From a virus (lineage: Duplodnaviria; Heunggongvirae; Uroviricota; Caudoviricetes): a stretch of DNA of 64,000 nucleotides. The stretch is from IMG/VR virus record IMGVR_UViG_2925450510_000002; one strand, given 5' to 3'. The notes under the pieces were generated by a model. The model was not told where the DNA came from, did not search any database, and worked only from the letters and a program-made list of their open reading frames with translations. This document shows positions 16,077 to 55,116 of the stretch, one piece after another; the stretch's first letter is position 1, and the number at the start of each line of letters is the position of its first letter. Made by a program: the position numbers and the translations under genes.

Positions 16077-16745
16077 ATGGCTATGAAACAGAGATGGCAG
16101 GACCTGGCCAAAACCAGGATGAAAGAAGTCGGCATGACTCAAGAACAGCTGGCAGAGGCGCTCGGCATAACGCAGGGCGGGCTGGGCCATTGGTTAAACG
16201 CCAGACGTGAACCGAACTTAGAGGTTATAGCTAAGATTTTTAACATATTGAAAATGCCCGGCTTCGTAGTAAATGCTGACGGCACTATCAGCGACTCAAG
16301 AGCCGATCACAATGTAAGTTTTAATAGCATTAACGAATCCAAGGGAAGCTACCCTGTTATAAGCTGGGTTAGCGCTGGAGATTGGATGGAAGCTGTAGAA
16401 CCGTACCACCGTAGAGCGATAGATCGATGGTATGACACCACCGTTGAATGCTCTGAGGATTCGTTCTGGTTAGACGTCAGAGGCGATTCCATGACATCAC
16501 CAGCAGGGCTGAGCATACCGGAAGGGATGGCGATACTTGTCGATCCCCAAGTGGAAGCAATCAACGGAAAATTGGTTGTAGCGAAACTTGACGGTGACAA
16601 TGAAGCCACTTTCAAAAAGCTTGTTATCGATGCCGGTCAAAGATTTCTCAAACCCCTCAACCCCCAATACCCAATAATCCCTATCAATGGCAATTGCCGT
16701 ATTATCGGGGTTGTAGTCGACGCAAAAATCACCAACCTCCCATAA
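16077..16745 (+). CDS. cI: CI-like repressor with C-terminal S24 (LexA-like) self-cleaving peptidase
   Basis: N-terminal HTH (QEQLAEALGITQGGLGHW) and C-terminal GDSM...K peptidase region. Confidence 0.85.
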   Translation: MAMKQRWQDLAKTRMKEVGMTQEQLAEALGITQGGLGHWLNARREPNLEVIAKIFNILKMPGFVVNADGTISDSRADHNVSFNSINESKGSYPVISWVSAGDWMEAVEPYHRRAIDRWYDTTVECSEDSFWLDVRGDSMTSPAGLSIPEGMAILVDPQVEAINGKLVVAKLDGDNEATFKKLVIDAGQRFLKPLNPQYPIIPINGNCRIIGVVVDAKITNLP

Positions 16746-17133: not shown

Positions 17134-18328
<1,195 letters not shown>

Positions 18329-19334
18329 TTAACAGCGTACTCCTGTCTACTTCATTTAAGTATTTAAATATACTACCTCTAATTATTAAAGATACAGGAG
18401 AATTTCCACAATAAACTAAATCGGCACCTGTTGGTTTCGCTAATTCTATTAATACATCAGCTGCTGATCCTGACTCGGGAAGTACACCAACAGGCCTCCC
18501 ACCTGAAAATGCAAGTATTTTACCTTCCAGCATGCTTAATTGGGGAAGCTCTTCAACATATGAATCAGGAACACGAAGGCTTCTTCGGAAATTGCTATCA
18601 ATCTTCTGATCAAGAATGGCATCACCAGCTTTCCAGGCATTAGTGTTGTCAACAATCTGCCTATCAACATAATTCTTCGTGGACGCATCCTGCGCCTGTG
18701 ACGGGTCACGCAGGTTACGAATGCGGTTGTTGAGTGCGTCGTAATAGTTCGCGAGCCACGATGGCTTCCTGAGAGATAGACCGGACCACCACCCATATGC
18801 CTGCTGCACCAGCATGGTCAACTTATCGAGAGCATCTTCGTGGATCTCAGGGAAAAAGCCACCCTGGTTCCTGATGCTGGCTTCCTGCGTAACCGGCGTG
18901 CTGCGCTCGATAGAGATTTTGTAGCCAGCTGGCAGCGCTGATGTCAGAACCACCTTCCCCCCGTTGTAACGGTTTACTCCGGTAACCGTGTAGTCGGTAC
19001 CGAGTGTTAGCGTCACGATGCTTTCGGAGGTATCCAGGGTCTGCACCAGCAGGTGGCTTTTATCCAGGATGCGGAACGTGAAATCGTATTGGGTAGTGGC
19101 GCCGTTTCCGGTGTACTCGTTACGGCTTACCTGCGTTGAAACTGTCATAGTCTGCTCCAGTGGTCAGCGCTGGCGCGCGTGCATAGAAGCATTCTATTAC
19201 CCATCAAACCATATATGAATAAAACAGATCGAAACGAGCAAAAACATTACCATTAAGGTAAATAAAACCTTCTGGAAAACCCTGTTACCTTTTGATATAT
19301 GTATATATATACAGTATTTATCGGAGTAATCCTA

Positions 19335-19756: not shown

Positions 19757-19909
19757 GTGCACGCGCTCTGACGCACCTATCCAATGGTGGGCTGGGCGGG
19801 GGTCCGAAAGGACGCCGGTATCCGTTTAGGCCGGTACGCCAACTCCGTTCAGTTCACCACCAGTAATTGGCGTTGCGGTGGTGATAACTCTACTAAGCGG
19901 GGTATCACA

Positions 19910-20599
19910 ATGAACACCAAACCTTCCATTTTCAATTTCGAATCAGACTCAGCTATTCGCGCCATTATGATCGATGGCAATCCTTGGTTTTTTGCATCCG
20001 ATGTTTGCCGCGCGATTGGCATCGCAAACCATCGTGATGCAGTTCGCAAACTTGATGATGACGAGAAGGGCGTCGGCTCAACCGACACCCTTGGTGGTGA
20101 GCAAGAATCAGTTATCATCTCCGAGTCTGGCCTCTACACCCTTATCCTCCGCTGCCGCGATGCGGTGACGCCGGGCACCATCCCCTACCGCTTCCGCAAA
20201 TGGGTAACCAGCGAGGTGCTGCCGCAGATCCGCAAGACTGGCCGCTACGTTCGGGAAGAACTCTCCCAGGCTGATAAAGCCCGCATGCTGGCGCAGGAGA
20301 TGACCAGCAGCATGTTGCCGGCGATCATGGATGCATTGCAGGTCGAGCAGAAGCATTACACCTTCCCTCTTAACCGACGCTATCAGGATCACATCCATTC
20401 ACCTGATGGCCTGCGTGAACTGGCGAAAAGCTCAATGGTGATGAAGCTGCTCCGCGAACTCGATGCTGACGGGCATGATGTTTCCGGCGCCGCCGCAGAG
20501 GTCACGGCCATGCTCAGCTACATTGTTGGTATCGGTGCCGTACTGCGCGACATAGAGACGCATGCTCAGTACGTGATGGTTAAGGCCAAGGGTTACTGA
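19910..20599 (+). CDS. antirepressor (Bro-N / AntA-like N-domain plus C-terminal domain)
   Basis: SIFNFESDSAIRAIMIDGNPWFFASDVCRAIG is a Bro-N signature. Confidence 0.7.
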   Translation: MNTKPSIFNFESDSAIRAIMIDGNPWFFASDVCRAIGIANHRDAVRKLDDDEKGVGSTDTLGGEQESVIISESGLYTLILRCRDAVTPGTIPYRFRKWVTSEVLPQIRKTGRYVREELSQADKARMLAQEMTSSMLPAIMDALQVEQKHYTFPLNRRYQDHIHSPDGLRELAKSSMVMKLLRELDADGHDVSGAAAEVTAMLSYIVGIGAVLRDIETHAQYVMVKAKGY

Positions 20600-21445: not shown

Positions 21446-21844
21446 CTACACATGGTAAGTGAAAATGAAAAAAGCATTCGCAGTGCTGTTTGTTCTGTTG
21501 TCTCTGGGTTCTTCTGCACAGGCTTTCGCGTACTGGATAACCCGATCGCGGATTTCAGGACGGACTTTGTTGGGACTGATGGTATTGAGCCAACCGGCCA
21601 ACTTGCGAAGAGCGAGGCAAATCATTTTGCGGGTTTTACCATCAGCGGCAACCATAGAGATTTCCTCTATAGTTGATGAGAAGCGCTGTTTCAGCTTGGT
21701 GTATTGACCCATCCAGTCCATACCCATCCCCTCAACGATAGGTTTCATCGGGGTATACGGCTCGCCGTTGTGGTTAACGACGTAGAGGCTTGCACCGTGG
21801 AAAGGTACATTGATTGTACGATCTGCAATTGCTAAACTTGTCAT
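21446..21844 (-). CDS. antirepressor, P22 Ant N-terminal-domain-like
   Basis: LAIADRTINVPFHGASLYVVNHNGEPYTPMKPIVEGMGMDW fits the P22_AR_N pattern. AGGAAA SD. Downstream of the arc-like gene. Confidence 0.55.
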   Translation of the reverse strand: MTSLAIADRTINVPFHGASLYVVNHNGEPYTPMKPIVEGMGMDWMGQYTKLKQRFSSTIEEISMVAADGKTRKMICLALRKLAGWLNTISPNKVRPEIRDRVIQYAKACAEEPRDNRTNSTANAFFIFTYHV

Positions 21845-21915
21845 GTCAATATTTCCTACGCTGGTTTGTTGATAATGAAGCCCCGAAGGTGCCAGCCAAC
21901 GGGGCTTCGCTGTTT

Positions 21916-22068
21916 TTACTGCGCATGCATTTGCCCTCTGAACTTCAGTGCCCATACAAGCGCCTGAACTAAAGCTGCATTTTCAGAAAGCCCCTCCTCC
22001 TCCGCAATGCGTTTGAACTCTTCTTTTACTTTCTGCGGATAACGCAGAGTTGTTTTTGCCTCTTTCAT
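21916..22068 (-). CDS. Arc-like ribbon-helix-helix repressor, 50 aa
   Basis: MKEAKTTLRYPQKVKEEFKRIAEEEGLSENAALVQALVWAL parallels P22 Arc (LRWPREVLDLVRKVAEENGRSVNSEIYQRVMES). Confidence 0.6.
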   Translation of the reverse strand: MKEAKTTLRYPQKVKEEFKRIAEEEGLSENAALVQALVWALKFRGQMHAQ

Positions 22069-35331: not shown

Positions 35332-35637
35332 CTATTCCTCGCTGGCCTCTTTGGCCATTGCCAGATACTGATCGGGACACGCCTCCATCACGTCGGAAAA
35401 GACTTTCAGTCCCGTGTTACGTTTTCCTTCGGCGAAGGCTGCCGAGAGTGCCTCACCGGTATAAGTCGTACGCCACACTCCAGCCTGCTCAATCAGGCGC
35501 CAGATGAAACGGCGGCCGTGTTCTGTCTCGCAGATAAGGCGCAGGTCATTAAGTTCGTTCTCGCGCCGTAACTGCTGCCTTTTGAGCTCATCTGCTGCCA
35601 GTTCTTCACGCTCTTCTTCGCTCAGGTAATCAGTCAT
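35332..35637 (-). CDS. hypothetical protein
   Basis: 101 aa, between the portal and scaffold genes. Confidence 0.45.
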   Translation of the reverse strand: MTDYLSEEEREELAADELKRQQLRRENELNDLRLICETEHGRRFIWRLIEQAGVWRTTYTGEALSAAFAEGKRNTGLKVFSDVMEACPDQYLAMAKEASEE

Positions 35638-37313
35638 TGCGTCACCGCCGGCTGCTGAGCAGCATCAGAGAGGGTTTTTAACAGGCTAGGGTCAGCGGTG
35701 TTGGTATCGCTCAGGGTCTTAGCGGTTGCGCCAGCTTGCTGGGCCATAGCCATCATCTGCTGCTGTTGCTGCTGCTGAGCGCGCTGCTCGCGCGTAGCTT
35801 GCACCTCATCATCAGAGTTAACGATCGTGGCCGGGACGCCGAGCATATTTCCGTACTCGTCAATCGTCTGGTCGATATTGAGTTTGTCGAGCGCCGCAGG
35901 ATTGGCTTTTGCAAGATTCCCAACAAAGCCAACAAAGCGCTCAACGCTGCTGATCCCTATGGATTTTTGGGCCTGTGCCAAAATGGATACATATTCAACT
36001 TTCAGAGGAGTGCCCTGCAGTTCTTCCGGTGGCTCAGGAAATAGGTTGCGGCGCGCCATGATGTTGAATGTGCGATCAACGAAAGGATCAAGGAATTCAT
36101 CATTAAGTCGCTCCAGTACTGGACCAAGCTGCAGGAGCTTCTCATCCTGCATTGCAGCCACAGCTTCCACTGGCATGCTCCTGGTGTTGATGGTGCTGAA
36201 CAGGTTAAACAGGTCAGAGAAGAAGCAGGCTTCAATCATTTGGCGGTCATCAGCAATGCTGCCGAGCATGTCATTAAGCTGAGGGCTGACGGCGTAAGCC
36301 GGACGCACTAGCTTGGTAGCATCAACCTCATCAACATAAGTAACGCCGCCAGGGGCAAGGTTGATCAGCTTATTTTTAAGACCTGTCGGGGCAACCATTG
36401 GCGGGTTAACAAGCTTATCGATCGCGTTAGCTTTGCGAATTTGCTCCAGCTGCAGCGCCTTACCAGTACCGAGCGCCATCATTCCCGGGCAGTTACTCCC
36501 GTAAACATCTTCCCCGTTAATCTCCCAGCGCGGTGAAAGGATCGGCGGCTCATCAAAACCAGCCTCACGAAGGAGCTTGTCACCGTCTCCGGACAACTCG
36601 AAATACACCGATTTGAATGCCTTGTTGCGGGAGTTCAGCTTGCCATTCACACGATCGATATTGGGCTCTGTCAGATGGACCACATCGAACCATGCTTCAT
36701 AGTTCGCGTTATCCCAGGCGCCGCGCACGGCGTTACTGACGTTGTCCAGGCCAAACTGCATAACAATCTGGCGGGCAGTCATGGAGAAAACGCGATACGT
36801 GGTATCGACTGACAAACGATGCGAGTTTGACAGGTAGTAACTTCCGATCGGCAGAGGATGAGTACGAATCACATCTTCGTCGTCTTCGAGAACCGCCATA
36901 GCCGCGGTACCAAAAACACCAAGGTGCCGGTAGATAATCGGCAGGGACTGGTAGACGTTAGAGCGGTTCATGACGTCGTTCATCCTGGTCATGACCACAT
37001 CAAGCCAGCGTTTTACCGGTCCATATTGCATCATCTCCGGATCCGGCGTTGCCAGCTTAAACCATGGGCGGGTTGGGCTGGTGATACCTGACAGCATGCC
37101 TGATTGCAGAGTGCGGGCAGCTTTAGAGGCGGTAGGGTCAACGATGCGGGTATTACGCTTGCTGCCGTTGTTTCTCTCCGTCGTAAGAAAGCGCGTGCTG
37201 CGCGGATCGATAAATTCCGCCAGTTCGCGCCAGTGCTCCTCAAAGCTGGTGCGCTCATTTTTGAGCTGCCCCAGGTGTTTGAGGTAATGCTGTTTCGGAG
37301 AGAGTTCGGCCAT
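35634..37313 (-). CDS. portal (head-to-tail connector) protein, T7 gp8-like
   Basis: 559 aa with a C-terminal poly-Gln/Met/Ala tail (QQQQQQQMMAMAQQAGA) like T7 gp8. Confidence 0.75.
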   Translation of the reverse strand: MAELSPKQHYLKHLGQLKNERTSFEEHWRELAEFIDPRSTRFLTTERNNGSKRNTRIVDPTASKAARTLQSGMLSGITSPTRPWFKLATPDPEMMQYGPVKRWLDVVMTRMNDVMNRSNVYQSLPIIYRHLGVFGTAAMAVLEDDEDVIRTHPLPIGSYYLSNSHRLSVDTTYRVFSMTARQIVMQFGLDNVSNAVRGAWDNANYEAWFDVVHLTEPNIDRVNGKLNSRNKAFKSVYFELSGDGDKLLREAGFDEPPILSPRWEINGEDVYGSNCPGMMALGTGKALQLEQIRKANAIDKLVNPPMVAPTGLKNKLINLAPGGVTYVDEVDATKLVRPAYAVSPQLNDMLGSIADDRQMIEACFFSDLFNLFSTINTRSMPVEAVAAMQDEKLLQLGPVLERLNDEFLDPFVDRTFNIMARRNLFPEPPEELQGTPLKVEYVSILAQAQKSIGISSVERFVGFVGNLAKANPAALDKLNIDQTIDEYGNMLGVPATIVNSDDEVQATREQRAQQQQQQQMMAMAQQAGATAKTLSDTNTADPSLLKTLSDAAQQPAVTQ

Positions 37314-37316
37314 GGA

Positions 37317-37535
37317 TTACGCCCCGAGCAGGGTCTTACCCTGAGTGCCGCCAGAAGGCTGCGTTACACCCTGGCTCGACGTCAGGATTGTTGATTTCTG
37401 CCCGCCCGCTGCGGCACGGCGACGACGATCGCTATCAGCGGCGTTCTGTACAGCAGAATCGGAAACCTGCGGCGCCGCCTGAACCTGCGGAGAACTCACT
37501 TTCGGCTTGCTGATGCACATTTTGCTGCGCTCCAT
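37317..37535 (-). CDS. small hypothetical virion-region protein
   Basis: 72 aa, first gene of the structural block. Confidence 0.4.
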   Translation of the reverse strand: MERSKMCISKPKVSSPQVQAAPQVSDSAVQNAADSDRRRRAAAGGQKSTILTSSQGVTQPSGGTQGKTLLGA

Positions 37536-37941
37536 ACGCGTTTAAATTATTACCAATTTAACCACATATGATTTATTTGTCGTAGTGTATTGACCTTTTG
37601 ACGATAAATTATTACCTTTTTGGTAAACACAACATGAAAGCGCACCCCATTCCCTTCCATTGGTGGCTTTGTCGTTACTCAGATGGCGGAGTGCGCTTCC
37701 AGGTGTGAAAGCATCCGGCGTATGGCACATGCGCCGATAGCGGTCCGGGGGCTCCTTGGTACATGGCCCAGCGGGTAGCCGGAATGTGCAAGCCATGCCC
37801 TGCATGCACGACAGCGACTCACCATCGTGGCGGTACGGTGTGACACCTCGGAAGAGACGAGGATGCAACGATGAGAGCATTGGCGGAAGCAACGCCTCCC
37901 TCGCCGGGTGGTCCACTGTGGTAATCAGTGCTCTCTTCGTT

Positions 37942-38018
37942 GTGGCATTAGCTCAGTCGGATAGAGCAACCGCCTTCTAAGCGGTTGGTCGCAGGTTCGA
38001 ATCCTGCATGCTGCACCA
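37942..38018 (+). tRNA. tRNA-Arg (anticodon UCU), CCA encoded
   Basis: Cloverleaf: D-arm GCTC-AGTCGGATA-GAGC, anticodon loop CTTCTAA, T-arm GCAGG-TTCGAAT-CCTGC. Acceptor stem has 2 G-U pairs. Confidence 0.7.
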
Positions 38019-38053
38019 GAATCACGCCTCAGGACCGTGATACCCGAAGTTCC

Positions 38054-38093
38054 AGAGCAAGTTTGGCGGTGGCAGTTATTCCCTTTCTGACCA
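38054..38093 (+). terminator. hairpin GGCGGTGG...CCACCGCC followed by CTTTTT
   Basis: 8-bp GC stem with a long loop and a T-tract. Confidence 0.4.
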
Positions 38094-38188
38094 CCGCCCT
38101 TTTTACAGCAGGACGCCATTGCGATGACTTCATGCTGTAAACCCTGTGACACCCAGCCAAGGACGGAACTTTCCATCATCCCTGTTTC

Positions 38189-38213
38189 GCCCGGTTCGTC
38201 CGGGCATTTTTTT
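38189..38213 (+). terminator. rho-independent terminator immediately upstream of the next gene's RBS
   Basis: GCCCGG-TTCGT-CCGGGC followed by ATTTTTTT. Confidence 0.5.
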
Positions 38214-38225
38214 AGAGAGGAAATC

Positions 38226-38747
38226 ATGACCCAGCACATAGGTGTAAAATTAATCAACGCATTTCCCATGACTCGCCAGGCATACAACGATTTTCGTGGA
38301 TGGCAACTTCCTGCCGATGAGAACGGCTCTGATGATGGCTATCTTGTTGAATATCTGGACGGCGGAAAACCTAACACCGATCGCTTTGATGGCTACGTTA
38401 GCTGGAGTCCGAAAGAGGTATTCGAAAAGGCTTACCGTCCGGTATCAGGGTTAAGTTTTGGCATTGCCATTGAAGCGCTCAGGCAGGGTAAAAAAGTTGC
38501 CCGCGCTGGCTGGAACGGTAAGGGGATGTGGTTGGCATACGTTAAGCCGTACACTGAAGCAGTTCACACTGGCAGTACACCTTGCTTTTGCAGTCGCGTC
38601 TTTGAGTTGCCGGAAGGTGCGCAGGGAGACCCGAAACGCGCTCCGGAACAACTGCCATATATCGCCATGAAAACAGCGGACGAAAAATTAGTGCCGTGGC
38701 TGGCTAGTCAGACCGATGTTCTGGCCGAAGACTGGCAAATCGTTTAA
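38226..38747 (+). CDS. DUF2829-like (Tad2-like) protein with a 70-aa N-terminal extension
   Basis: ALRQGKKVARAGWNGKGMWLAYV...LPYIAMKTADEKLVPWLASQTDVLAEDWQIV recalls the DUF2829 signature. GAGAGG SD. Confidence 0.5.
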   Translation: MTQHIGVKLINAFPMTRQAYNDFRGWQLPADENGSDDGYLVEYLDGGKPNTDRFDGYVSWSPKEVFEKAYRPVSGLSFGIAIEALRQGKKVARAGWNGKGMWLAYVKPYTEAVHTGSTPCFCSRVFELPEGAQGDPKRAPEQLPYIAMKTADEKLVPWLASQTDVLAEDWQIV

Positions 38748-38767
38748 CACCGTAACATGTCGCAATC

Positions 38768-38793
38768 AGCCCGCCGATGTGCGGGCTTTTTCA
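38768..38793. terminator. terminator between the convergent genes
   Basis: CAGCCCGC-CGATGT-GCGGGCT followed by TTTT on the plus strand. Confidence 0.5.
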
Positions 38794-40266
38794 TGCCCAC
38801 GGGTCGTACTCGCTGATCACGTTGGGCTGCTTGCCGCCGGCAGCAGGGAAATCTGAACGCTTCGCCACTGGATAGGCGAACGTCAGAAGCAGCGCATCGC
38901 CCTTGCCAGGAGACCGGCCCAAACGCTCTTTGATATCCTCTTTCGGCTCCATGACGATCTTACCGTCCACCCTCACCTTGTACTCTGCTGCGGACAGGTC
39001 GTCCGCAGTCTCCTGGTCGTCAATCGCGCCGCCGAGCTTGAGCCACGTCTTGCAGGCGTTGAACATCTCGCCGCGCTTATTCAGCATCTGAGGATCTGCC
39101 GATGCGCCGCCGAACGGTACAAGCTGCCAGGTACGGCCCCAGCCGTCACCGATTGACTTCAGCCCGGTGCCGTATCCGAAGTCGATAAACACCGCGTCAG
39201 CCTGGTACTGGTCCTCAAAGTCAGCGATACGCTTAGCCATAATCAGATCGTCAGTGGTCTTGTTGCCGGTCCACAGCACTTTGCTGTGCAGCCCCTGGCG
39301 GAGATAAATCACCGCGTCATCCACGCCGGAATATGCCGGGTCGACGCCGATTATCCGCGGGGCGTGCGCCACCTGCGCAGCGGTCACAACGCGCTTCATC
39401 GCCTCGTCTGTCAGACCGGTAGGGATGAACTGCAGCTCTGACGCATCAGGGAAGATCCCGCGCACGCGGACCTTCACGAAATCGCTGTCCTCGCCGTAGT
39501 CATCGACCCACTTTTGCAGCTGCTGCTTGTTGGTGCCTTCGACGGTGCGGCTGTCGATTTGCGCGCATTTCCAGCGGTGCTTGTATTTGCGGAAGCACTC
39601 TCGGAATCGCCCGGTGTTACGCGTCGGGTTACCGAACGCCACCCAGATAATTTCGGTGTCCTCGTCCGTCAGCGCGCCCTCGGCAACCTCCCAGACCAGA
39701 TCCGCGATGTTGGATGCTTCGTCGAACACCACAACGATGCGCTTACGCTCGTTGTGCAGGCCTGCAAACGCCTCGGTGTTGTGCTCAGACCAGGGAATAG
39801 CATCGGCGCGCCAGCGTTTGTCGTGGCCCGGATCGTTGCTGTACATCGCGGTGGCGGTGCAGGTGAACCACTCTTTCGTGATAGCCAGGTTCGACCATTT
39901 GATGATTTCCGGCCAGGTCTTCGTGCGCAGCTGGTTATCGGTGTTAGCGGTCACCACCACCTTGCAATCTTCACAGGTGGACATGGCCCAGTTAATCAGC
40001 ATGGAGATAAACGCAGATTTTCCGATGCCGTGGCCGGATGCGCGGGACAGCATCAGCGGCTGGTGACGTGTCGCGGGATTCTGCAGGTGCTCGCCTATTT
40101 CGCGGAATGCGTCAGCCTGCCACTGGCGCGGACCAGTGGCGTGCGCCAGTTCTGTGCCATCCTCGCCCCACGGAAACGCATACAGCGCATAGCCCAGCGG
40201 GTCATGGGTGAAGCTGGCGATATCGTCGATCAGCTGTTCTTCCGGGGATAAAGCGGCGTCTGTCAC
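38791..40266 (-). CDS. terL: terminase large subunit (phage B)
   Basis: Walker A SRASGHGIGKS plus a nuclease domain. Confidence 0.8.
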   Translation of the reverse strand: MTDAALSPEEQLIDDIASFTHDPLGYALYAFPWGEDGTELAHATGPRQWQADAFREIGEHLQNPATRHQPLMLSRASGHGIGKSAFISMLINWAMSTCEDCKVVVTANTDNQLRTKTWPEIIKWSNLAITKEWFTCTATAMYSNDPGHDKRWRADAIPWSEHNTEAFAGLHNERKRIVVVFDEASNIADLVWEVAEGALTDEDTEIIWVAFGNPTRNTGRFRECFRKYKHRWKCAQIDSRTVEGTNKQQLQKWVDDYGEDSDFVKVRVRGIFPDASELQFIPTGLTDEAMKRVVTAAQVAHAPRIIGVDPAYSGVDDAVIYLRQGLHSKVLWTGNKTTDDLIMAKRIADFEDQYQADAVFIDFGYGTGLKSIGDGWGRTWQLVPFGGASADPQMLNKRGEMFNACKTWLKLGGAIDDQETADDLSAAEYKVRVDGKIVMEPKEDIKERLGRSPGKGDALLLTFAYPVAKRSDFPAAGGKQPNVISEYDPWA

Positions 40267-53865: not shown

Positions 53866-55116
53866 CTATTGTTCATTCATCCACTTTTCAAATGCAGACG
53901 GGGAGAACGGCACCAGGTCGTAATGCTCCCCGTTTATCCATGCATCAACCATATTTGCCCACTGCTGCAGCATGTAGGCCCGCTGCCTGGAATACTCGGC
54001 CTTGTTGTAAACGGCCCTCACGCCCTTCTGTTCATGCGCCAGCGCCTTCTCTATCCAGTCTGAAGGGAATCCCGCTTCATGCAAAAGCGTGCTCGCTGTG
54101 CGCCGCAGGTCGTGCACTGTTAGAGGTTGCAGGTTCTCCCCGGCATCCGATGCCGCAGCAACCGCGCGATCGATGACTGAGTTCAGAGCGGCATTGGATA
54201 GCGGCTTACTGGTGCTGTAGCGACCTGGCAACAGATAATCACTCCCGCCGGCGCACATCTGCAGGCCTATCATCAGATCCTGCGCCTGAGGCGGCAGATA
54301 GATGACGTGCAACCGGCTCCCCTTCATCCTGTCAGATGGGATCGTCCAGGTTCCTTTGCTGAAATCCACCTCTTTCCACGTCGCCATGATGAACTCGGTT
54401 TTGCGCACCATCGTGATCAGGATGAGCTTCACAGCCAGTTTTAAGGTTGGCAAAGTGCTGACGGTATCGAGAGACCTGAACAGCACGCCGATTTCTTCCG
54501 GCTGCAGGCAACGGTCACGCGGTTTAAACATGGCGATCGCCGAAGGTTTGATATCTGCGGCCGGGTTGAATAACCCGTGCCCGCGGTCATTGGCGTACCG
54601 GTACACGCTGCTGATGATTTCACGCGCCTGCACCGCCGTCGCACGTCCACCGCGCTCGACTATGCGATCGCAAAGATCACGCACCATAGGGGTCGTTATC
54701 TCGGACATCATTTTGTTTCCGAGAACAGGCAAAATATCCCGGTCGATTACTGATTGTTTCATAGCCCGCGTGCTGTCAGCCAGGACCACATGTTTCATGT
54801 AGGCGTCGGTATGTACCGTAAATGTTTCGGCGCCGCGGATCCGCTTGATACCGTCACGCTTCGCTGCAGCCGGCGACTGGCCTGCGTTCAGCAGTTTTTT
54901 AGCGGCTATCAGCTCATCCCTGGCTTCAGCCAGTGTGATACCGTCACGACCATACTGACCGATAACCAGCGTCTCCCGGCGGCCGTTGATGCGGTAATCG
55001 TAACGAAACGAGATGGTGCCTGAGATCAGCACGGCTACATACAGACCGTCGCGATCGGAGACCTTGTACATTTTGCCCTGCGGTTTCAGGTTTTTTAATT
55101 TGGTATCGGTAAGCAC
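53866..55116 (-). CDS. int: tyrosine integrase (P4-like, DUF4102 N-terminal arm-binding domain)
   Basis: MLTDTKLKNLKP N-terminus and a C-terminal catalytic domain with a conserved RHDLRRT motif. Confidence 0.85.
   Translation of the reverse strand: MLTDTKLKNLKPQGKMYKVSDRDGLYVAVLISGTISFRYDYRINGRRETLVIGQYGRDGITLAEARDELIAAKKLLNAGQSPAAAKRDGIKRIRGAETFTVHTDAYMKHVVLADSTRAMKQSVIDRDILPVLGNKMMSEITTPMVRDLCDRIVERGGRATAVQAREIISSVYRYANDRGHGLFNPAADIKPSAIAMFKPRDRCLQPEEIGVLFRSLDTVSTLPTLKLAVKLILITMVRKTEFIMATWKEVDFSKGTWTIPSDRMKGSRLHVIYLPPQAQDLMIGLQMCAGGSDYLLPGRYSTSKPLSNAALNSVIDRAVAAASDAGENLQPLTVHDLRRTASTLLHEAGFPSDWIEKALAHEQKGVRAVYNKAEYSRQRAYMLQQWANMVDAWINGEHYDLVPFSPSAFEKWMNEQ

Follow-up and report, generated by a model that had tools for sequence, protein, structure and literature searches.

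A major route by which phages get past Thoeris, CBASS, and Pycsar is the use of sponges, proteins that sequester the second messengers of immunity. The founding Thoeris anti-defense 2 sponge, SPO1 Tad2 (gp34.65 of the lytic Bacillus phage SPO1; Protein Data Bank [PDB] IDs: 8SME and 8SMF), is a single-domain protein of 89 amino acids with a 24-residue insertion. The Tad2 tetramer is a dimer of V-shaped dimers with the pockets at the protomer interfaces, and in SPO1 Tad2 the residues of a GWNG motif and of a C-terminal PWLASQTDVLAEDW motif build the gcADPR pocket. The ligands of Tad2 homologs vary widely and include 3'cADPR, His-ADPR, N7-cADPR, cUMP/cCMP, and cyclic dinucleotides. HgmTad2 (also known as AcrIIA7; PDB IDs: 8KBI–8KBM) and SptTad2 (PDB ID: 8WJD) have a long insertion and also bind cyclic dinucleotides; all nine residues of HgmTad2 that contact the cyclic dinucleotide are conserved in SptTad2. 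Sponges also occur fused to each other, as in Acb4–Tad2 of Pasteurella phage Pm86, which blocks Thoeris I and CBASS I, and in Tad2–Sequestin and Acb4–Sequestin (Pseudomonas phages YH6 and Ab09). Tad2 and Acb4 form tetramers. Sequestin, which forms dimers, was itself discovered by considering what is fused to known sponges. RyR Tad (gp68 of Pectobacterium phage vB_PatP_CB1), a dimer unlike the tetrameric Tad2, consists of an N-terminal domain followed by a gcADPR sponge domain built as an all-helical RyR repeat. Its crystal structure shows the N-terminal domain as a domain-swapped dimer, in which a five-stranded β-sheet is completed by the swapped strand β1, and both domains contribute to dimerization (bioRxiv 10.64898/2026.06.04.730250). 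The sponge domain is active without the N-terminal domain, and the isolated N-terminal domain (gp68_N, residues 1–86), the sole domain of this kind tested experimentally, was inactive against type I Thoeris (bioRxiv 10.64898/2026.06.04.730250). Here, we propose, with a probability of roughly 0.7, that a gene in the analyzed window (the whole stretch of 64,000 nt) is a prophage anti-signaling gene for a two-module protein, in which a Tad2 sponge is joined to an N-terminal domain (N-dom) with a likely second activity.

The gene occupies positions 38226–38747 of the plus strand, from the ATG at 38226 through the stop codon, and encodes 173 amino acids, in agreement with the open reading frame given in the earlier note. 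A longer reading frame from the ATG at 38124 was rejected, because the homologs and the GenBank record begin at MTQHIGVK. The product is 100% identical to a protein of Klebsiella phage ST512-KPC3phi13.3. A Shine–Dalgarno-like AGAGAGG (38214–38220, plus strand) lies 5 nt upstream of the ATG, and a terminator-like GC hairpin, GCCCGG-TTCGT-CCGGGC followed by a run of seven T (38189–38213, plus strand), ends 12 nt upstream of the start codon. Directly upstream of the gene is a tRNA-Arg with the anticodon TCT (37942–38018, plus strand), which was detected by ARAGORN and by the Rfam tRNA model (68.6 bits) and lies in a flank homologous to phiV10, BUCT711, and ST11-OXA245phi3.2. On the other side, a second GC-rich hairpin from the terminator scan, AGCCCGC-CGATGT-GCGGGCT with a T run (38768–38787, unstranded), separates the stop codons of two convergent genes, the 173-residue gene (38747) and that of the large terminase subunit (38791). 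The latter gene spans 38791–40266 on the minus strand and is annotated as such in MK422448 and phiV10. No sigma-70-like promoter was found in a scan of 37500–38900. In the Rfam scan of 37300–38900, the tRNA alone scored above the threshold; a Trp_leader match at 38695–38794 (27 bits versus a threshold of 41) was rejected as merely the terminator hairpin. RNA from the conserved noncoding stretch at 37626–37941 would fold no more stably than expected (z = −0.69 and −0.29). Comparison with Kapi1_043, the 89.5%-identical ortholog of phage Kapi1, indicated purifying selection on the whole gene (dN/dS = 0.09), a ratio that falls to 0.054 in N-dom and rises to 0.12 in the Tad2 core, and the regions upstream of the two genes are unrelated.

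Residues 74–173 (38445–38744, plus strand) form the Tad2-like (DUF2829) domain. The earlier note had recognized this family from a sequence pattern, and the profile search bore it out: residues 77–173 match PF11195 (Tad2-like) with an E value of 4.2e-26 (91.7 bits, cut-off 25) over profile positions 2–73 of 73, which places the protein in the same Pfam family as SPO1 Tad2. A PDB sequence search matched seven solved Tad2/AcrIIA7 sequences (E = 4e-16 to 8e-13), with SptTad2 among the best. As sequence matches, both results are far beyond chance. The AlphaFold2 monomer model of the 173-residue protein (pLDDT 82) places helices at residues 78–86 and 162–166 and strands at residues 91–93, 102–108, 145–149, 155–157, and 170–172, with the insertion after the second strand. 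Helix α1, the antiparallel sheet, the post-β2 insertion, the short C-terminal helix, and the last strand of the Tad2 fold are all present; SPO1 Tad2 shares this fold, with helix α1, a five-stranded antiparallel sheet, and a C-terminal helix. A comparison with solved Tad2 structures, which the earlier note had suggested as a check, gave the same picture. A Foldseek search of the PDB returned 24 Tad2 chains at E ≤ 1e-3 (probability 1.0, TM(target) 0.60–0.81), of which SptTad2 was the top match, and the best non-Tad2 match had an E value of only about 1. Compared with SPO1 Tad2, which comes from a lytic Bacillus phage, the present protein belongs to a prophage of a Gram-negative host and adds a 73-residue N-terminal domain and a 37-residue insertion.

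The Tad2-like domain carries helix α1, the GWNG motif (Trp96 and Asn97), and the C-terminal PWLASQTDVLAEDW motif (Trp158, Ser161, Thr163, and Asp164). Residue mapping placed Trp25, Asn26, Ile63, Thr65, and Asp67 of SPO1 Tad2 at Trp96, Asn97, Met148, Thr150, and Asp152, and His71, Trp73, Ser76, Thr78, and Asp79 at Val156, Trp158, Ser161, Thr163, and Asp164, respectively. Nine of these ten gcADPR-pocket or water-coordinating residues are identical or conservatively replaced; the sole changed position is the water-coordinating His71, which is Val156 here. Among 51 homologs, Trp96, Asn97, Trp158, and Asp164 are invariant and Met148, Ser161, and Thr163 nearly so (≥90%). The SQTD motif is identical to that of the gcADPR binders SPO1 Tad2, HgmTad2, and SptTad2 and differs from the SVSD of the His-ADPR binder ModTad2. 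As judged by its modeled fold and pocket residues, the protein is a genuine Tad2-family member and a predicted sponge. The sequence cannot fix its ligand, because Tad2 homologs differ so widely in this respect. In the literature searched, no report of binding, oligomeric state, or phage rescue was found for this or any other N-dom–Tad2 protein. The earlier note had also regarded the protein as a possibly new variant of a signaling-molecule sponge. The sponge part of this view is upheld by the Tad2 fold and the gcADPR-pocket residues, but the newness is not, as the Kapi1 ortholog had already been proposed to be Tad2-like (PMC12922286).

The roughly 35 extra residues that the earlier note had seen inserted in the core correspond to residues 108–144 (38547–38657, plus strand). 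This segment of 37 residues is the known variable β2–β5 insertion of the Tad2 family; it is 13 residues longer than that of SPO1 Tad2 and similar in length to those of SptTad2 and HgmTad2 (35–41 residues), and its size is that of the cyclic-dinucleotide-binding Tad2 subclass. It is hypervariable in close relatives, with a mean pairwise identity of 0.21 versus 0.68–0.70 elsewhere in the protein, and was modeled less confidently (pLDDT of 64–76 for ten-residue blocks within residues 111–140). The two cysteines noticed earlier in this segment are present (Cys120 and Cys122), but they are not a conserved pair: Cys122 varies and is Ser in close homologs, and a conserved metal or disulfide site was rejected. 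Residue mapping also led to rejection of a transfer of the cyclic-dinucleotide pocket of HgmTad2 and SptTad2 to this protein. In the alignment via SptTad2, the HgmTad2 contacts Arg31, Pro32, Asp34, Leu36, and Lys46 correspond to Lys107, Pro108, Thr110, Ala112, and Phe126, and Ser47, Phe70, and Thr71 correspond to Glu127, Gln142, and Leu143, while Asn85 falls in a gap. Only Pro108 is identical, and Lys107 is conservative. A second pocket cannot be assumed in the 173-residue protein, because these contact residues are not kept; HgmTad2 and SptTad2, in turn, both lack N-dom.

N-dom comprises residues 1–73 (38226–38444, plus strand) and is a small β-β-α-β-β-α module, with four to five strands and two helices in the monomer model (pLDDT 94.7). 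The linker to Tad2 helix α1 is only about five residues. Neither the single sequence nor a 54-sequence profile matched any entry in Pfam, NCBIfam, or the PDB sequences, and a Pfam search with residues 1–76 gave no match even at E ≤ 10. Nevertheless, N-dom matches 1,592 protein clusters at E ≤ 1e-3. The architectures were counted in the 150 best representatives of these clusters: N–Tad2 (43), N–Sequestin (24), Acb4–N–Sequestin (8), Acb4–N (5), N–Acb4 (5), Tad2–N (1), and N alone (14), while in 42 the partner regions match nothing known. A single fusion of N-dom with Acb2 (P0265) was also found. The stand-alone reading frames are of about 73 residues, with examples in phages HHBS14_1 and Avpd1; in HHBS14_1, an Acb2 gene follows two genes downstream. 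Overall, N-dom stands alone or is joined to Tad2, Sequestin, Acb4, or Acb2, with no fixed order of the domains. It is not a divergent Acb4: there is no PF13876 match, hhalign against 19 Acb4 domains gave a probability of 0.16%, and in proteins with both, PF13876 and N-dom occupy separate segments. Strongly conserved residues include charged and aromatic ones (Lys8, Arg17, Tyr20, Asn21, Arg24, Trp26, Glu42, Tyr43, Tyr57, Ser59, and Trp60), and N-dom remains 89–97% identical where the attached Tad2 core falls to 52%. The extension had been described earlier as a novel domain of unknown function. It is indeed an autonomous, very conserved, and widespread domain without known function, but it is not particular to this copy: the full two-domain architecture corresponds to phrog_872 and is present in 94 phage records, including the ortholog of N4 gp49, as well as in all of the 120 top-ranking homologs out of more than 7,900 in the database.

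The 173-residue protein and the sponge–sponge fusions are alike in that a phage accessory locus encodes two small domains as a single polypeptide. N-dom stands where the partner sponge sits in those fusions and also occurs inside triple fusions such as Acb4–N–Sequestin; both domains of the sponge–sponge fusions have proven ligands, unlike N-dom. We tentatively suggest that N-dom may be an unrecognized, widespread phage anti-signaling family, either a new sponge or an inhibitor of immune signaling, which would make the 173-residue protein a dual inhibitor. On this reading, fusion-based searches would have missed the domain because it has no Pfam entry, and it would be a marker for further sponge families among the 42 of the 150 best representatives with unmatched partner regions.

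RyR Tad has the same domain plan. N-dom is homologous to residues 1–69 of gp68 (BLASTP E = 7e-5, 33% identity over 67 residues), and its profile matches gp68 of CB1 with an E value of 8e-9. The N-terminal domain of gp68 is in turn 41% identical to ORF65 of Avpd1, a stand-alone member of the family (E = 6e-19). The motifs K..PMT, GYLV.Y, and Y.SWSP..F are common to N-dom and the gp68 domain, and a structural match of N-dom in BFVD is an RyR-domain protein of Yersinia phage TG1; RyR Tad coordinates were absent among the PDB matches of N-dom. An alternative is that the protein is a single-function Tad2 sponge, in which N-dom is purely structural and acts by dimerization or cross-bracing on oligomeric state, avidity, or stability, with no ligand or target of its own. 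Such a role is favored because gp68_N is inactive against type I Thoeris and is domain-swapped in the crystal (bioRxiv 10.64898/2026.06.04.730250), and the short linker to α1, the tetramerization helix of Tad2, is consistent with it. However, the inactive gp68 domain is a short variant that lacks the DGGKPN loop, Arg17, Asn21, and Arg24-Gly-Trp26 of the present subfamily, in which these arginine, asparagine, and RGW positions are invariant or nearly so. Moreover, a pure oligomerization tag would be useless in the common stand-alone frames (14 of the 150 best), the partners Tad2, Acb4, and Sequestin already self-assemble, and the RyR sponge domain works without its N-terminal domain. The very high conservation, including that of many charged and aromatic residues, and its persistence while the Tad2 core diverges also speak against a purely structural role, which we consider rather unlikely.

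The genomic context supports the earlier proposal of an accessory slot between the tRNA and the terminase. In phiV10, the same slot holds a gene for the sponge Acb4 (PF13876, E = 6e-35). In blastn comparisons, the homology on the left stops at 38214 with phiV10 and at 38213 with BUCT711, and on the right it resumes at 38745 with ST11-OXA245phi3.2 and at 38795 with BUCT711 (range, 38745–38857). The upstream and downstream hairpins are the left and right boundaries of an exchangeable cassette, and the gene occupies a swappable cargo slot with the tRNA-Arg as the conserved left flank and the terminase as the conserved right flank. Its relatives lie in other contexts. Kapi1_043 of E. coli phage Kapi1, a member of the same two-domain family whose protein is 92% identical over the full length, lies behind the lysis cassette in a P22-like phage. 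JURA_0011 of the N4-genus phage Jura, annotated as matching N4 gp49 (YP_950527), is 40.6% identical over the full length, has its PF11195 match at residues 83–159, and lies beside Acb4 and before the virion RNA polymerase. In an N4-genus phage, the Acb4 and N-dom–Tad2 genes are overlapping neighbors in the N4-like anti-signaling hotspot.

In the Kapi1 lysogen, one gene was the most expressed of the prophage in all conditions tested (PMC12922286), and sequence comparison identified it as Kapi1_043, the ortholog of the 173-residue gene. The host of that prophage, E. coli MP1, lacks Thoeris (PMC12922286). These observations suit a role mainly in the lysogen, in which the protein would sequester a host messenger such as c-di-GMP, or an NAD-derived signal, and thereby alter host physiology or silence immunity for induction. 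Long-insertion Tad2 proteins bind c-di-GMP tightly, HgmTad2 and SptTad2 carry it when purified from E. coli, and the gene lies behind a tRNA and is oriented against the late operon, an arrangement typical of morons expressed during lysogeny. A mainly lysogenic role nevertheless appears improbable, given the poor retention of the HgmTad2 contacts for c-di-GMP/cGAMP described above and the origin of the expression data in another phage and host. A role during infection is indicated by the presence of the same architecture in the anti-signaling hotspot of N4-like phages, which are strictly lytic. An anti-CRISPR function is highly improbable. It might be suggested by the similarity to the AcrIIA7/HgmTad2 chains 8kbi and 9kzr (E about 1e-13), since AcrIIA7 was initially described as a Cas9 inhibitor. 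However, its binding to Cas9 was never shown, AcrIIA7 is itself HgmTad2, a sponge for gcADPR and cyclic dinucleotides, and DUF2829 proteins act against Thoeris and not against CRISPR in the view of the authors who defined Tad2. In addition, Klebsiella and E. coli are not known to carry type II-A CRISPR–Cas as a rule.

Returning to the two-module anti-signaling protein, we propose the following mechanism by analogy with SPO1 Tad2. The Tad2 module would form a homotetramer, and its interprotomer pockets, lined by Trp96, Asn97, Trp158, Ser161, Thr163, and Asp164, would sequester 1''–3' gcADPR (3'cADPR), the Thoeris signal made by TIR, so that the Thoeris effector would never be switched on. The 37-residue insertion represents the specificity-variable region of the family, which is exchanged between otherwise near-identical proteins. 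N-dom, which also exists as a stand-alone phage frame and is joined to at least five unrelated sponge families, would most likely add a second, independent anti-signaling activity by binding an immune protein or an immune signal other than that of the Tad2 module, and would not merely aid the folding or oligomerization of Tad2. The gene is a self-contained cassette between the two hairpins, where relatives place other cargo, including the Acb4 sponge, and its Kapi1 ortholog is expressed in the lysogen.

The Tad2 half of the protein is an ordinary and predictable member of the sponge class, and its location indicates that Klebsiella prophages of the epsilon15/phiV10 type reserve an exchangeable slot for sponge genes. 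The N-dom half is the useful lead: a very conserved, unannotated domain of about 73 residues that accompanies five unrelated sponge families, occurs on its own as well, and stays nearly invariant while the insertion of the attached Tad2 is exchanged. A purely structural N-dom would explain how phages construct multi-sponge assemblies. If N-dom has a target of its own, it would be a new family in the anti-signaling repertoire of phages and a search handle for finding more.

The C-terminal part of the 173-aa protein (residues 74–173; gene at 38226..38747, stop codon included, plus strand) is a genuine Tad2 family member. The earlier note had read a DUF2829/Tad2-like domain here, and PF11195 matched residues 77–173 with an E value of 4.2e-26 (91.7 bits; cut-off, 25). 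In a PDB sequence search, the only significant matches were Tad2 proteins (ModTad2, SptTad2, SPO1 gp34.65, and HgmTad2/AcrIIA7; E values, 4e-16 to 8e-13). An AlphaFold2 model built from 51 homologues had a mean pLDDT of 82. The comparison with Tad2 structures called for in the earlier note was made with Foldseek: 24 Tad2 chains in the PDB superposed on the model (probability, 1.0; target-normalised TM-scores, 0.60–0.81), and the next-best structural match had an E value of about 1. According to the paper defining Tad2, SPO1 Tad2 contacts gcADPR directly through W25, W73, N26, D79, and T78, by non-polar contacts through I63 and T65, and through waters held by D67, H71, and S76. HMMER alignment to chain 8sme_A, with a one-residue offset, mapped these residues to W96, W158, N97, D164, T163, M148, T150, D152, V156, and S161, respectively, so that 9 of the 10 are kept. 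Across the 51 aligned sequences, W96, N97, W158, and D164 never vary, and conservation reaches 90% or more at M148, S161, and T163. The three gcADPR-binding structures have the same SQTD motif, whereas ModTad2, a His-ADPR binder, has SVSD. The domain is assigned to Tad2 on the basis of these profile and PDB matches, fold, pocket residues, and motif. 3'cADPR (1''-3' gcADPR, the Thoeris signal) is the most likely predicted ligand; this assignment stays an inference, since binding of five or more types of signal has been demonstrated across Tad2 homologues. By analogy with characterised members, the domain would form a tetramer and sequester 3'cADPR, to which we give a probability of about 0.8. 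This half of the protein is an ordinary further member of a known family, with orthologues already annotated as DUF2829 and one discussed in print.

The segment between strands β2 and β5 is variable. The extra residues in the core, about 35 by the earlier count, form an insertion of 37 aa (residues 108–144; window 38547–38657), which is a known feature of the family and not a novelty, since HgmTad2, SptTad2, and SaTad2 have 35–41 aa at this position; SPO1 Tad2 has 24 aa. In those three proteins, the insertion makes a second pocket for c-di-GMP and cGAMP. Nine published contact residues were compared using an HgmTad2 sequence rebuilt from PDB alignments. All nine are conserved in SptTad2, whereas their counterparts here are K, P, T, A, F, E, Q, L, and a gap. 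The known cyclic-dinucleotide pocket was thus rejected for this protein, although its insertion is in the same length class. Of the two cysteines pointed out in the insertion, the second (C122) is replaced by Ser in close relatives and is not conserved. Among close homologues sharing the N-terminal domain at 89–97% identity, at least eight unrelated insertions of 19–37 aa were found, and pairwise identity averages 0.21 within the insertion versus 0.68–0.70 elsewhere in the protein. The gene has a nucleotide match in 42 of 5,426 complete E. coli genomes, and in 38 of these 42 it breaks off at nt 268 or 304, immediately 5' of the insertion. By these patterns, the insertion is a diversification hot spot of the Tad2 domain and behaves as a swapped cassette.

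The start codon was assigned to ATG 38226 because all homologues and the GenBank record of a near-identical phage begin at MTQHIGVK. A longer frame from ATG 38124 in a mechanical ORF list was rejected since it would cross a terminator-like hairpin. A purine-rich, Shine–Dalgarno-like AGAGAGG can be read 5 nt 5' of the start. The gene lies between tRNA-Arg(TCT) (37942..38018, plus strand) and the large terminase gene (38791..40266, minus strand), with which it is convergent, as it is with the small terminase gene, also on the minus strand; the portal gene (35634..37313) is on the opposite side of the locus from the terminases. The window is a Klebsiella prophage grouped with the epsilon15/phiV10-like Uetakevirus phages, and it is 99.2% identical to Klebsiella phage ST512-KPC3phi13.3 across the region of the gene. 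It also encodes an integrase (53869–55116), an S24/HTH repressor (16077–16742), a Bro-N protein (19784–20596), and a P22-type antirepressor (21449–21955). An IS-type transposase gene (DUF772 plus DDE_Tnp_1; 17282–18178, plus strand) adjoins a 288-aa ORF (18285–19148, minus strand) whose sole Pfam match is the N-terminal domain of the T7-type tail fibre. This insertion, near the repressor, Bro-N, and antirepressor genes, may have cut short a tail fibre or tailspike gene, and the prophage could therefore be defective.

The accessory slot proposed between the tRNA and the terminase was borne out as a cassette-like site, with relatives holding other cargo in the segment corresponding to window 38215–38790, from the tRNA-side flank to the terminase. 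Homology on the left ends at 38214 (phiV10), 38213 (BUCT711), and 38169 (ST11-OXA245phi3.2), and resumes on the right at 38857, 38795, and 38745, respectively. The phiV10 cargo is an Acb4 sponge gene (L004 2200–2571; PF13876, E value of 6e-35). In BUCT711 the slot encodes a 263-aa protein whose only Pfam matches, to coiled coils, fall below threshold (L006 2742–3533), and in ST11-OXA245phi3.2 it holds a 93-aa ORF of unknown function (L005 2267–2548); either could have a different anti-defence or exclusion function. The left boundary is the terminator-like hairpin with a T7 run (38189–38213), which ends 12 nt before the start codon, and the right boundary is a hairpin (38768–38787) flanked by the stop codons of the two convergent genes. 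Homology with E. coli phage Kapi1 spans exactly 38226–38748, the ORF alone; the upstream sequences are unrelated, although in Kapi1, too, a hairpin and T run precede the orthologue by about 25 nt. A promoter scan predicted no sigma-70-like promoter anywhere in 37500–38900, and the gene may be transcribed by read-through from the tRNA promoter. Between a 72-aa ORF (37317..37535, minus strand) and the tRNA, about 400 nt (37536–37941) hold no credible gene. The AT-rich part carries the inverted repeat TTACCTTTTTGGTAA, and blocks of the GC-rich part are conserved in phiV10 (overall identity, 74%), with indels of 1, 2, 6, 7, and 18 nt interrupting them. Substitutions showed no codon periodicity (39/36/34), and no Rfam match or excess folding stability (z, −0.69 and −0.29) was found. 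The stretch may have a regulatory role, or act as a promoter, for the tRNA and the cargo gene.

The N-terminal domain (residues 1–73; N-dom) had been taken as a novelty of this copy, which it is not. The protein matches phrog_872 over its full length (E value of 4e-74), whereas phrog_9467 and phrog_32732 match only its N-terminal part; none of the three has a known function. The full architecture is present in 94 phage records and in each of the 120 top-ranked homologues among more than 7,900 in the database. Both domains are under purifying selection (dN/dS, 0.054 for N-dom and 0.12 for the Tad2 core). Residues 1–75 matched neither a Pfam or NCBIfam family nor, profile search included, any sequence of solved structure; an exhaustive HMMER search with N-dom returned 1,592 clusters (E ≤ 1e-3). 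The full architecture also occurs in phage Jura of the N4 genus, in the N4 gp49 orthologue (161 aa; PF11195, E value of 8e-24), which overlaps an Acb4 gene, the gp48 orthologue (PF13876, E value of 7e-35). The Pfam name "N4 Gp49" for PF13876 thus fits the neighbouring gene in this annotation. The pair (L010 4612–5468) follows a tRNA cluster and terminator and lies just before the convergent virion RNA polymerase gene, a reported anti-signalling hotspot of N4-like phages.

Fusion partners were assigned with local HMMs in the 150 best N-dom representatives. N-Tad2 was the most frequent sponge architecture (43), followed by N-Sequestin (24), Acb4-N-Sequestin (8), Acb4-N and N-Acb4 (5 each), N-Tad2-Sequestin (3), N-Sequestin-Tad2 (2), and Tad2-N, Sequestin-N, N-Sequestin-Acb4, and N-Acb4-Sequestin (1 each); N-dom stood alone in 14. 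Apart from the Tad2 cases, the Pfam partners were PF21825 (the Sequestin sponge; 34 of 100), PF13876 (the Acb4 sponge; 19), PF24729 (the Acb2/Tad1 hairpin domain; 1), and WDGH, AP2, and HNH (one each). N-dom is a segment separate from the sponge domains because their Pfam coordinates differ in P0137 (Acb4, 29–104; N-dom, 134–201) and P0232 (Acb4, 105–179; N-dom, 201–267; Sequestin, 277–336). A divergent Acb4 was rejected as its identity (hhalign probability, 0.16%). Stand-alone N-dom ORFs of about 73 aa also exist. Pseudomonas phage HHBS14_1 has one after its lysis genes (L007 2501–3217), followed by a 66-aa ORF that looks helical and is of unknown family and then, as the second gene downstream, by an Acb2-type gene (PF24729, E value of 2e-17); P0265 is a fused Acb2 plus N-dom version of this pair.

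In RyR Tad, the gp68 protein of Pectobacterium phage CB1, the N-terminal domain is a homologue of N-dom (BLASTP E value of 7e-5; N-dom profile, 8e-9). This gp68 domain also matched the family member Avpd1 ORF65 (E value of 6e-19), and N-dom structurally matched an RyR-domain protein of Yersinia phage TG1. N-dom therefore has five sponge families as partners: Tad2, Sequestin, Acb4, Acb2, and RyR-type. Multi-domain sponge fusions and the RyR Tad N-terminal domain are already in the recent literature; the literature searched contained no report of N-dom as a recurrent partner of these families, or of its being kept constant while the Tad2 insertion is swapped.

An independent anti-signalling role of N-dom is possible, at somewhat less than even odds. 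Its main rival, a purely structural role, is somewhat less likely. In favour of this rival, a June 2026 preprint (bioRxiv 10.64898/2026.06.04.730250) reports that the RyR Tad N-terminal domain is a domain-swapped dimer in the crystal and alone has no anti-Thoeris I activity, the C-terminal RyR-like domain being a sufficient gcADPR sponge. However, R17, N21, R24-G-W26, and the DGGKPN loop, all of them fixed or almost fixed in the subfamily of the present N-dom, are missing from the gp68 copy, a short variant, so its negative result need not transfer to N-dom. A role directed at the lysogen, for example sequestering a messenger of the host, is a faint possibility. The Kapi1 orthologue (92% protein identity), proposed to be Tad2-like, is reported to be expressed more highly in the lysogen than any other prophage gene (PMC12922286). 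An anti-CRISPR role is unlikely for this protein.

In 42 of the 150 best representatives, N-dom is joined to at least 50 residues with no match to Tad2, Acb4, Sequestin, or Pfam (P0157, P0180, P0136, P0141, and about 40 others among P0121–P0270); N-dom occupies 160–229 of 230 aa in P0157 and 80–153 of 351 aa in P0180. We tentatively suggest that N-dom itself could be a new anti-signalling family, and by the logic of the fusions the unmatched partner regions are candidates for further sponge families.
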